From a virus (lineage: Duplodnaviria; Heunggongvirae; Uroviricota; Caudoviricetes): 8,286 nucleotides of DNA. The stretch lies in the IMG/VR virus record IMGVR_UViG_2711768008_000006; one strand, written 5' to 3'. A program made the position numbers. Positions 1 to 3,000 of this stretch are shown in pieces. Position 1 is the first letter of the stretch. Each line of letters opens with the position of its first letter.

Positions 1-3000
1 CTGAAATCTTTACTGCCATATTCACCCCACAAAAAAGCCCGCCTGAACCGGCGGGCTGTCATAACACTGTGTTACCTGGCTAATCAGAATTTATAACCGA
101 CACCCACGATGAAACCGTCAGTGCGCCAGAGACGTGTTGCTGTGGCGACCGTCATCACTTCCGGTCAGCACATCGTGCGTTTTCCCCTTATTGTCAGTTA
201 CGCGGATATAATCCCCGGAAAAAGTCGACACACGGCTGTAAGCCACACCCGCCATCGCATACGCGCTGAACCATTCATTCACGCGCACAGACGGCCCCGC
301 CATCACGCTGAACCAGCGGTTACGCACGGAATCTTCATGCCAGCGGGTATCGCTGTAACGGGTCAGCTGGCGATTCTTGTCTCCTGCATAGCTGAANNNN
401 NNNNNNNATGAAGATACCCCGCGCTCAGCGTGGACTGATGTTCAGACGCCCATGCAGGCGCACCGGATACGGCCAGACAAATGGCTGCGGACAAAATGGC
501 GGCATAAAGTTTACGCATAATTACCTCTCGCTTTTCTGCAATAAAAAAGGCGTCATTCCTGACGCCATTTATTGGGGTTATAAATATTTCAACGAATACT
601 GATGCCGGAAGCCGCTTTTTTGGTCACAATCACCGTACAGTCGGTGATATTGCCTGCCCCCTGATTGCCTTTCTGGAAAATCTTAAACTCCAGAGTGACG
701 CTACCACCACCACTAGGCATATCAATAACTGCACTGTAACTACCGGGAATGGCCCCTTTAGTTTCTCTGGATGCGATTAATACGCCGTTTTTGCGAACTT
801 CAAAACCATAACCCGTGTATCGCGTGCCTCCTGGGTTATTTCCGCTCCCCGGATCGTCATACGCTATACCGTTAAAAATAATGGGCGGAATAATAATCTG
901 GCGGTCAAAGTTATGATCATCGCTTATGGTGACTGTAACCGTCCCGTTTGGTGTTTCCGTGTTACCCCACGTACCAGCCTGTTTCGGAAATGATTTGGAT
1001 ACAGCTTTAACGAAGTCACCTCTGACCTGAGTCGCCTCCAGCATGCCCTTAATCGTACAGTTTTCATTTACCGTGACATTGTTGAGCGTCCCGGCGTTCG
1101 CATTCACACTGCCACTGATATCCGCATTTTTAGCGGTCAGCTTTCCGTCCGGAGTCAGGGAAAATGCCGATGGATTTCCACCGCTGGTAATGGTGGGGGC
1201 CGTCAGGCGTTTCAGGAACACGTCGTTCATGAATATCTGATCGCCCTGACCAACAAACATCGGTTTTGTGTTGCCATTCGCAGGATTAACCATCGCAATC
1301 CTGTCCGCCGCCAGCAGCACCTGACTCTGCATGCCGTCAGGGGTGTTCTCAATACCGGCACCAATACCCGCGATATAAAGGCGTCCGTCCTGCATCTGCT
1401 GCAGCTTCACAGCCCACATGCTGTTCAGGTTATTATTTGTATCAACCTGAACCTTCTGTATCTGCTGAATTGCCGCACTCTGGTCTTCCAGTTTCTTATT
1501 GACGGTCTGCGTGATTTCATTGCTGACATCCGTAATGGACGTCCTGATTTCAGCCAGGTCAGGCGCAAGCTGACCGTTATCAATCTGCGTCCACAGCTCC
1601 TGAGCCAGATGGGTTTTCCCTATCTCGCCTTTGAAAAAATCCAGATAACCGGATGCATCATCACTCGGCTGACCAACAGCCTCCACGAATGCCGATTTGC
1701 CAACGGTGTTCACACTGCGGATATAAAAGTAATAATCATGGCCCGGTTTGATATTGATACTGGCGGCTATCCAGTACAGCGCCGTGCCAAGATAGCGTGC
1801 TGTGGTTTCAACCTGCCTGATATCCGCAATCCGCTTTTCCGAGAACCAGAACTCAAACTGTACCGTCGGATCATAAACCGCAAGATGCGGCGTGGCGGTT
1901 NNNNNNNNNNNNNNNNNNNNNNNNNNNNNNNNNNNNNNNNNNNNNNNNNNNNNNNNNNNNNNNNNNNNNNNNNNNNNNNNNNNNNNNNNNNNNNNNNNNN
2001 NNNNNNNNNNNNNNNNNNNNNNNNNNNNNNNNNNNNNNNNNNNNNNNNNNNNNNNNNNNNNNNNNNNNNNNNNNNNNNNNNNNNNNNNNNNNNNNNNNNN
2101 NNNNNNNNNNNNNNNNNNNNNNNNNNNNNNNNNNNNNNNNNNNNNNNNNNNNNNNNNNNNNNNNNNNNNNNNNNNNNNNNNNNNNNNNNNNNNNNNNNNN
2201 NNNNNNNNNNNNNNNNNNNNNNNNNNNNNNNNNNNNNNNNNNNNNNNNNNNNNNNNNNNNNNNNNNNNNNNNNNNNNNNNNNNNNNNNNNNNNNNNNNNN
2301 NNNNNNNNNNNNNNNNNNNNNNNNNNNNNNNNNNNNNNNNNNNNNNNNNNNNNNNNNNNNNNNNNNNNNNNNNNNNNNNNNNNNNNNNNNNCGGCGTGTC
2401 CCAGCGCGCCAGCACCTGATATTCCCCGCTGTCTGCGGTGACTTCGGCAGTCAGGTGCTGCACCGCTGGCGGCGTGACACCATTCACCGTGCCGCTCTGG
2501 TCGCCGTCAAAGTGCGCCCCGTTATCCACGATGGCTTCTTTTTCCGGCACATGCTGCACGGCGGTGATGGCATACGTGCCGTCGTCGTTCTCACGGATAC
2601 TCACGCAGCGGAACAATCGCTGGTGCAGCGTCGGCAGCTTCAGCCCCCACACGCTGTATTCAGCAACACCGTCAGGAACACGGCTCACTTTTACCTTCAC
2701 GCCGTCGGTGACGGACTGGACCTCCACGCTGACCGGATTCCCCTGCCCGTCAACCAGGCTTATCAGCGTGGTGCCGGAGGATGGCAGCGTGATTTCACGG
2801 TCGAGCGTCAGCGTCCGGGTCTGGCTGTTCACCGCCAGCACGCGCCCGCCGGTGCGGATACCGGCATAGTCATCATCGCAGATTTCAATGACATCGCCCG
2901 GTACATGACGAAGCCCTTCAGCACCCACGCTGAAATCCACGGTCTGCGTCTCCAGCAGTTCCGTTTTAATCAGCCACAGCCCGGCGCGGTGTGCCTGCCC

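Follow-up and report, generated by a model that had tools for sequence, protein, structure and literature searches.

Modular exchange of the C-terminus of the tip attachment protein J is textbook lambdoid biology. In phage lambda the Ig-like domain of gpJ lies as a trimer at the fibre tip, from which four bottom loops reach into the LamB trimer; LamB binding is passed via the beta-prism stem and the alpha-helical shaft, and the tail opens (Ge & Wang 2024, PMC11101478). The fibre domain names used here (e.g. CSF) are taken from the same paper. Natural prophage J C-termini have been grafted onto lambda, and the resulting A8 and 1A2 chimeras use OmpC and not LamB (Brodel et al. 2024, PMC11338833). 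Four gpJ structures concern us here: lambda gpJ with LamB (8xcj), lambda gpJ closed (8xck), A8 gpJ with OmpC (9wcb) and A8 gpJ closed (9wca). Wherever a complex of this domain family has been solved, the partner is a trimeric porin, either LamB (PMC11101478) or OmpC. In a comparison of natural J variants, lambda J residues 1012, 1048-49, 1077-78 and 1107 were identified as critical for receptor use or as indel-rich, and were predicted to lie in surface loops (Maddamsetti et al. 2018, PMC6646904). For the lambdoid mEp phages, PMC11893012 (citing Hernandez-Sanchez 2008) reports FhuA as the most frequent receptor, OmpC as the second and LamB as less frequent.

The DNA analysed here (the window) is a stretch of 8286 nt that makes up the entire contig CWVN01000176.1 of the draft assembly GCA_001248525.1. 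Its minus strand carries a tail module of the lambda type, which runs from the last part of H, the tape measure gene, through M, L, K, I, J and lom to the first 19 nt of stf. The coordinates of the features discussed are given in Table 1. At the position equivalent to the start of stf, E. coli MB56 has a gene annotated as 'prophage tail fiber N-terminal domain'.

The runs of N in the window are scaffold gaps in which the masked length is not preserved. A run of 11 N stands where phi458 has 93 nt, the single N at 5337 replaces 83 nt present in both lambda and phi458 and puts K out of frame, the 491-N run (window 1901-2391) corresponds to 254 nt in both lambda and phi458, and a 413-N run corresponds to 365 nt in lambda. 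There is a further loss of about 83 nt in lom that is not marked by N. Window 408-1900, which contains the stretch coding for the receptor-binding domain, is free of gaps.

Table 1. Features of the 8286-nt window, with coordinates counted from its first nucleotide
Feature	Position (nt)	Strand	Evidence or remark
Gene J, tip attachment / host specificity protein	589..4323	minus	ORF; scaffold gap inside at 1901-2391
Predicted receptor-binding domain, non-lambda allele (J aa 1085-1244)	592..1071	minus	37% identity to lambda; Pfam PF12421; AF2/Foldseek
Conserved lower fibre stem, beta-prism 'CSF' of lambda gpJ (J aa 1006-1084)	1072..1308	minus	86% aa and 88-97% DNA identity to lambda
Second divergent block, alpha-helical shaft and upper stem (J aa 897-1005)	1309..1635	minus	30% identity to lambda, 100% to phi458
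Terminator-like hairpin and T-run, 23 nt after the J stop, inside the non-lambda block	549..566	minus	Consensus scan
lom (Ail/Lom outer-membrane protein), non-lambda allele, apparently co-inherited with the receptor-binding domain	84..518	minus	blastx
Terminator-like hairpin after lom, in resumed lambda-like sequence	36..57	minus	Consensus scan
Start of side tail fibre gene stf (ATG GCA GTA AAG ATT TCA G...)	1..19	minus	Truncated by contig end; sequence read
Gap or lesion sites of CWVN01000176.1	124-129, 397-407, 1901-2391, 5337, 6487-6899

The original prediction, made from the sequence, held that J is near-identical to lambda gpJ over roughly its first 1000 residues and that its C-terminus, at window 589-1065, does not resemble that of lambda. 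The C-terminal peptide quoted with it is an exact translation of the minus-strand ORF 589..4323. This ORF encodes 1244 aa only if the length of the gap is taken literally, and the length is therefore unreliable; J has 1165 aa in phi458 and E. coli MB56 and 1137 aa in 2B8, the closest complete relatives. The source annotation divides J into products of 644 aa and 436 aa, and the first 644 codons are connected to the 3' part solely through the scaffold gap. An extra FNIII domain of about 79 aa in the masked part, which the 1244-aa length would call for, was considered and rejected, as N runs are not length-preserving in this scaffolded draft contig.

Protein-protein alignment of J with lambda gpJ (reference NC_001416) shows alternating blocks of high and low identity. 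Residues 1-644 are 97% identical to lambda, residues 645-808 fall in the 491-N gap, and residues 809-896 are 93% identical. Identity then falls to 30% over residues 897-1005, where there is a 28-aa insertion relative to lambda, rises to 86% over residues 1006-1084 and falls again to 37-38% over residues 1085-1244. The second divergent block has a DNA identity to lambda of 17-75%, and in 2B8 this block is of the lambda type. The claim of near-identity over some 1000 residues thus holds for residues 1-644 and 809-896 but not for the gap or for residues 897-1005. The claim of a non-lambda C-terminus is borne out, the last ~160 residues being 37-38% identical to gpJ compared with 86-97% in the lambda-like flanks. 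The break between lambda and non-lambda sequence lies at J aa ~1076-1085 (nt ~1071-1098), which fits the predicted position. Since the flanks are near-identical to lambda and 74 phage records contain this divergent block at 95-99% aa identity, the sequence comparison indicates that the drop at the C-terminus is far beyond chance.

The divergent end of J is nevertheless homologous to that of lambda (tblastn E = 4e-20, 37% identity). It matches the Pfam family PF12421 (Ig_GpJ_C) with 91.1 bits against a gathering cutoff of 26.2, over profile positions 1-134 of 135. PF12421 is the Pfam model named 'Tip attachment protein J, C-terminal receptor binding domain'. Within the last 436 aa of J the Pfam order is PF24489 - PF09327 - PF12421, so that Ig_GpJ_C follows Ig_J_second and Phage_Tail_Tip and forms the very end of a tip attachment protein of the lambda type. 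The scaffold motifs ENC, DDHxFDRQI, NG, DMPxGxG and KKxxxGIS, common to all alleles compared, are kept. The statement that this region does not resemble lambda is therefore correct in that the sequence is strongly divergent, but it overlooks a homology that is evident from the tblastn and Pfam matches and from the motifs.

Structure prediction of the end of J had been proposed as a check, and we modelled its last 173 residues as a monomer with AlphaFold2 (AF2), using a 20-sequence alignment spanning several alleles. The model is all-beta with a mean pLDDT of 77.9 (moderate confidence). In a Foldseek search of the PDB with this model, the matches were 9wcb (top), 9wca, 8xck and 8xcj, with E ~1e-14 and TM scores of 0.68-0.69, and the next match after these four gpJ structures had an E of 2e-4, ten orders of magnitude weaker. 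The predicted fold thus matches the LamB- and OmpC-bound gpJ domains. A PDB sequence search agrees, with gpJ matches at E 1e-87 to 1e-97. Taken together, these searches place the domain in the gpJ receptor-binding-domain family, with a predicted Ig-like fold.

In the alignment of this allele with lambda there are gaps at lambda ~1010-1012, ~1043-1049, ~1077 and ~1100-1110, where the four specificity regions have indels of +2, +6, +1 and -4 to -6 residues. These positions coincide with the residues or indel-rich regions reported by Maddamsetti et al. (PMC6646904). All four indel-rich specificity regions differ from those of lambda, and this makes a change of receptor from LamB plausible.

The divergence is not confined to J. 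Non-lambda DNA continues past the J stop through a hairpin and nearly all of lom (window ~130-1065), and below window ~130 the DNA identity to lambda is back at 88-93%. The first hairpin has an RNA folding energy of -16.3 kcal/mol (z = -2.8). In the window lom lies in three reading frames and lacks aa 38-68 and 160-185, the missing pieces coinciding with the 11-N gap and the unmarked ~83-nt loss. The remaining Lom fragments (aa 1-37, 69-159 and 186-199) are 97% identical to the Lom proteins of phi458 and 2B8 by blastx. These are only 44-46% identical to lambda Lom, and the 91-aa middle fragment from the window is 35% identical to it. The extent of the non-lambda DNA and the Lom identities suggest that the exchanged unit comprises the receptor-binding domain, the terminator and lom, as in ordinary lambdoid mosaicism.

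The divergent receptor-binding block has sharp boundaries inside conserved sequence. Phage phi458 has both non-lambda blocks, that is, this shaft and this domain. Phage 2B8 combines a lambda-type shaft with this domain at 99% identity, the crossover lying in the conserved ...NADISG(S/R)VNAN... of the lower stem, which shows that the shaft block and the receptor-binding domain assort independently. Additionally, the database protein P0093 is a hybrid inside the domain itself. The sharp boundaries, the 2B8 arrangement and the P0093 hybrid all support the proposal that a C-terminal receptor-binding module has been swapped in a lambda-like J, and the swap agrees with what has been published on how J varies in nature (Maddamsetti et al. 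2018, PMC6646904).

The same allele is present at 95-99% aa identity in 74 deposited phage genomes. Carriers include cdtI, phage 2851, mEp460, mEp332, Ayreon, phi458, ASU11 and Kati, the infant-gut phages 2B8, Evi, ev207 and ev243, the LF82 prophages Perceval and Tritos, ECOR-derived phages propagated on MG1655 or ECOR13, and many Stx1a, Stx2a, Stx2c, Stx2d and Stx2k converting phages. Three of the nine phages compared by Maddamsetti et al. (mEp460, cdtI and Ayreon) also carry it (PMC6646904). A megablast search with the 483 nt coding for the domain found the allele in 2113 of 5426 complete E. coli genomes (~40%), with up to seven copies per genome. The equivalent segment of lambda was found by megablast in 98 genomes, a separate set, in every case at an identity of at least 99%; the three matches listed come from laboratory strains, including a DE3 lysogen. 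A framing of the swapped domain as unusual is not borne out by these counts, since the allele is ~20 times commoner than lambda's own in complete E. coli genomes. Protein clusters place it in E. albertii and Shigella as well. A homologue query with the domain alone retrieved mostly fragments of the same allele, and extending the query with the conserved stem brought in other alleles. Among the families sampled, this is the commonest gpJ receptor-binding-domain family. The domain and its architecture are known, the allele is likewise known and very common, and as a sequence feature it is neither new nor surprising.

In order to place the allele among those with a characterised receptor, 67 retrieved C-termini were clustered with the lambda, A8 and 1A2 references at a threshold of 85%. 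The A8 sequence was taken from the PDB alignment. That of 1A2 was reconstructed from the DNA printed in the supplement of PMC11338833, a scanned (OCR) text prone to errors, and the rebuilt sequence is 95-98% identical to its natural counterparts (P0146, 98%). This allele is 38% identical to lambda (LamB), 44% to A8 (OmpC) and 40% to 1A2 (OmpC); A8 and 1A2 share 60% identity with one another and 43% each with lambda. This allele, lambda and A8/1A2 fall in separate families. By sequence the domain belongs neither to the LamB-binding type, being 37-38% identical to the lambda specificity region, nor to the OmpC-binding A8/1A2 type, from which it clusters apart at 44% and 40%. The allele was also considered as the source of the 1A2 chimera, which works on O157 OmpC, and this was rejected at 40% identity. 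Because the allele is about as distant from both OmpC binders as from the LamB binder, similarity assigns it no receptor. Alignment to J proteins of known receptor, which had been put forward as a check, therefore located the collapse of identity relative to lambda but does not indicate a receptor. Papers on gpJ with OmpC and LamB, on phages bearing the allele and a review of Stx phages, together an incomplete coverage of the literature, give no receptor for it.

Other observations bear on the receptor indirectly. The allele is found in plaque-forming phages propagated on K-12 (Ayreon, mEp332, PhiR26_1 and PhiR34_1), which indicates that its receptor is present in K-12. The cor exclusion gene is reported to be associated with FhuA-dependent lambdoid phages. 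In the FhuA-dependent type (phi80, HK022, N15 and most mEp phages) cor is expected downstream of J; the window has lom there instead, which argues against membership of this group. We infer that the allele binds an outer-membrane protein of K-12 that is a trimer of the porin type, and that this protein is probably not LamB. Plaque formation on K-12, the presence of lom and not cor, receptor usage among the mEp phages and the restriction of solved complexes to porins together make OmpC the single most likely candidate, with a probability well short of even; this is a weak prior and not a result. LamB is a rather unlikely candidate, and OmpF or another protein takes the remaining probability.

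Retention of LamB as the receptor, with a host range at the level of the outer membrane as in lambda, would be in keeping with the conserved fold and scaffold motifs and with the growth of phages bearing the allele on K-12, which has LamB. LamB is also used by very different proteins, such as the GpJ tips of Drexlerviridae, which have little or no homology to that of lambda, and reportedly by some mEp lambdoids. These points are set against the 37-38% identity to the domain of lambda, the indels in all four specificity regions and the finding that A8 and 1A2, which at 43% are closer to lambda, have switched to OmpC; retention of LamB is thus rather unlikely. A receptor not recorded for any lambda-type J, and hence none of LamB, OmpC or OmpF, would suit an allele that forms a family of its own roughly equidistant from all the characterised ones and for which no receptor assignment was found in the literature despite 74 sequenced phages. 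Additionally, Gifsy-1 J binds OmpX and BtuB as well. However, every ejection-triggering receptor of the family that has been solved or genetically assigned is a trimeric general or specific porin, and the literature coverage behind the missing assignment is incomplete, so we consider such a receptor unlikely. A more specific form of this proposal, in which the allele recognises a receptor other than LamB, OmpC and OmpF and its constant partner, the non-lambda Lom, is functionally tied to that specificity, seems distinctly unlikely.

The state of the contig raises two further explanations. The prophage could be decaying and non-functional, the domain having no present role in this genome, as might be suggested by the frameshift in K at 5337 (one N where lambda and phi458 have 83 nt) and by a lom gene that lacks two segments and lies in three frames. 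All of these lesions, however, remove ~82-83 nt in or close to N runs of a draft scaffold that is 8.3 kb long and contains gaps, and the stretch coding for the domain has an intact reading frame with 96-99% identity to functional phages. Losses of ~82-83 nt near N runs are a typical assembly problem in genomes with several lambdoid prophages. Given their uniform size and their position in so short a draft scaffold, the K and lom lesions are regarded as probable assembly artefacts and not as prophage decay, which we consider improbable. Misassembly could also be invoked for the junction between lambda and non-lambda sequence, as a chimera of two prophages from the same genome: the scaffold has five anomalies in 8.3 kb, and the 5' two-thirds of J meets the 3' third only through the 491-N gap. 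The junction between the stem and the receptor-binding domain, however, lies inside the uninterrupted window 408-1900, which is collinear at 97% with phi458 and is also collinear with closed E. coli chromosomes. An assembly chimera at this junction is effectively refuted.

In summary, window 592-1071 very probably codes for an alternative allele of the receptor-binding domain at the C-terminus of gpJ, one that is common in nature and is carried here on a lambda-type tail-tip protein. Its most likely origin is homologous recombination, which would have brought in the allele, the J terminator and lom as one cassette (window ~130-1065). Of the two joints, the upstream one would lie in the conserved lower fibre stem and the downstream one in the 3' end of lom or the start of stf. 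By homology, the domain would work like that of lambda, as three Ig-like domains at the tip of a trimeric central fibre. Its variable bottom loops would engage an E. coli outer-membrane protein, and the binding signal would pass through the stem and the shaft, so that the tail tip opens.

By analogy with lambda, this domain would decide which E. coli cells are entered by widespread temperate phages, including Shiga-toxin- and cdt-converting ones, and knowledge of its receptor would help to predict the spread of Stx and cdt toxin genes. With its receptor known, the domain would be a third targeting module for engineered lambda particles, beside A8 and 1A2, for delivery in the gut. The allele has been deposited many times and was included in a published analysis of J variation, and its novelty as a sequence feature is accordingly low.

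Among the closest described systems, phi458 is collinear with the window at 97% DNA identity from the end of FNIII-2 through lom. The J proteins of phi458, cdtI, 2B8, Evi, ev207, ev243, mEp460, mEp332, Ayreon, Perceval, Tritos and phage 2851 have the same domain allele, although phages bearing it differ upstream, 2B8 having the lambda-type shaft and a J of 1137 aa and phi458 a J of 1165 aa. In Salmonella, Fels-1 J is 45% identical to the domain in the window. Lambda gpJ in complex with LamB (8XCJ/8XCK; Ge & Wang 2024, PMC11101478) shares with this domain the Pfam family, the position at the fibre end, the predicted Ig-like fold and the motifs. In contrast, at 37-38% identity and with indels in the specificity regions, the domain is by sequence not the LamB-binding allele. 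It likewise forms a separate allele family from A8 and 1A2 (PMC11338833; 9WCA/9WCB, A8 with EDL933 OmpC), although these are the same kind of swap, with natural E. coli prophage C-termini placed on lambda J. The J proteins of phage 434 (OmpC) and Gifsy-1 (OmpC, OmpX and BtuB), which we liken to it from their descriptions, are classic and recent cases in which the C-terminus has been replaced or has diverged and the receptor has changed.

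There is a second block of J, encoding the alpha-helical shaft and upper stem, that is not lambda-like. It is 30% identical to the corresponding part of lambda J and contains an insertion of 28 aa that would lengthen the J shaft, which in lambda flips upon receptor binding. The block is present in phi458 but absent from 2B8, and both of these phages carry the receptor-binding-domain allele of the window. This shows that the shaft block and the receptor-binding domain assort independently. Additionally, the J C-terminus of P0093, a database protein from the homologue retrieval, is 81% identical overall to the OmpC-type allele of 1A2 and 54% identical to the window allele, and its last residues are those of the window allele ('...[12 protein letters not shown]'). 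P0093 looks like a recombinant inside the receptor-binding domain.

The Lom encoded in the window is 97% identical to that of phi458 and 2B8, and these two proteins share 44-46% identity with lambda Lom. By sequence, the lom allele is therefore non-lambda, and each of the three phages compared carries it alongside the receptor-binding-domain allele. The hairpin after J (fold -16.3 kcal/mol, z = -2.8) lies within the swapped cassette of receptor-binding domain, terminator and lom.

Features of the window (N-run and loss lengths compared with lambda or phi458)
Feature	Window position	Details
Terminator-like GC hairpin + T-run, directly 3' of lom	36-57	minus strand
lom	84-518	three frames; residues 38-68 and 160-185 of phi458-type Lom missing
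Unmarked loss (without N)	~124-129	~83 nt gone, 6-nt microhomology
N run	397-407	11 N vs 93 nt
Terminator-like GC hairpin + T-run, directly 3' of J	549-566	minus strand
Second non-lambda block of J	1309-1635	J aa 897-1005
N run	1901-2391	491 N vs 254 nt
K (C40 peptidase tail protein)	4953-5614	two overlapping frames
N run	5337	1 N vs 83 nt
N run	6487-6899	413 N vs 365 nt
H (tape measure)	6901-8286	96% DNA identity to lambda H

The N runs do not have the true lengths, and three losses in the window are each of ~82-83 nt. The window is the entire draft contig CWVN01000176.1 (assembly GCA_001248525.1), so the N runs and the unmarked loss are scaffold gaps or assembly artefacts. The single N is the point at which K breaks into its two frames; if the ~82-nt loss there were genuine, K would be a pseudogene and the prophage tail-defective.

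The clade of the tape measure has been reported to correlate with the need for the inner-membrane ManYZ complex (2025 preprint, 10.1101/2025.11.03.685801). As H is lambda-like, one would expect the DNA of the window's phage to enter the cell by way of ManYZ, irrespective of the outer-membrane receptor that this phage uses.

Finally, we compared the 3' end of lambda J (8434-8904 of L001, the lambda stretch used here) with window 589-1071 across 5426 complete E. coli genomes. The window allele is present in 2113 and the lambda allele in 98, every lambda match being at least 99%. Among the matches listed, all three carriers of the lambda allele are laboratory strains, one a DE3 lysogen. The lambda allele is thus rare in complete E. 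coli genomes, and in nature it is the textbook LamB-binding domain that is the unusual one.
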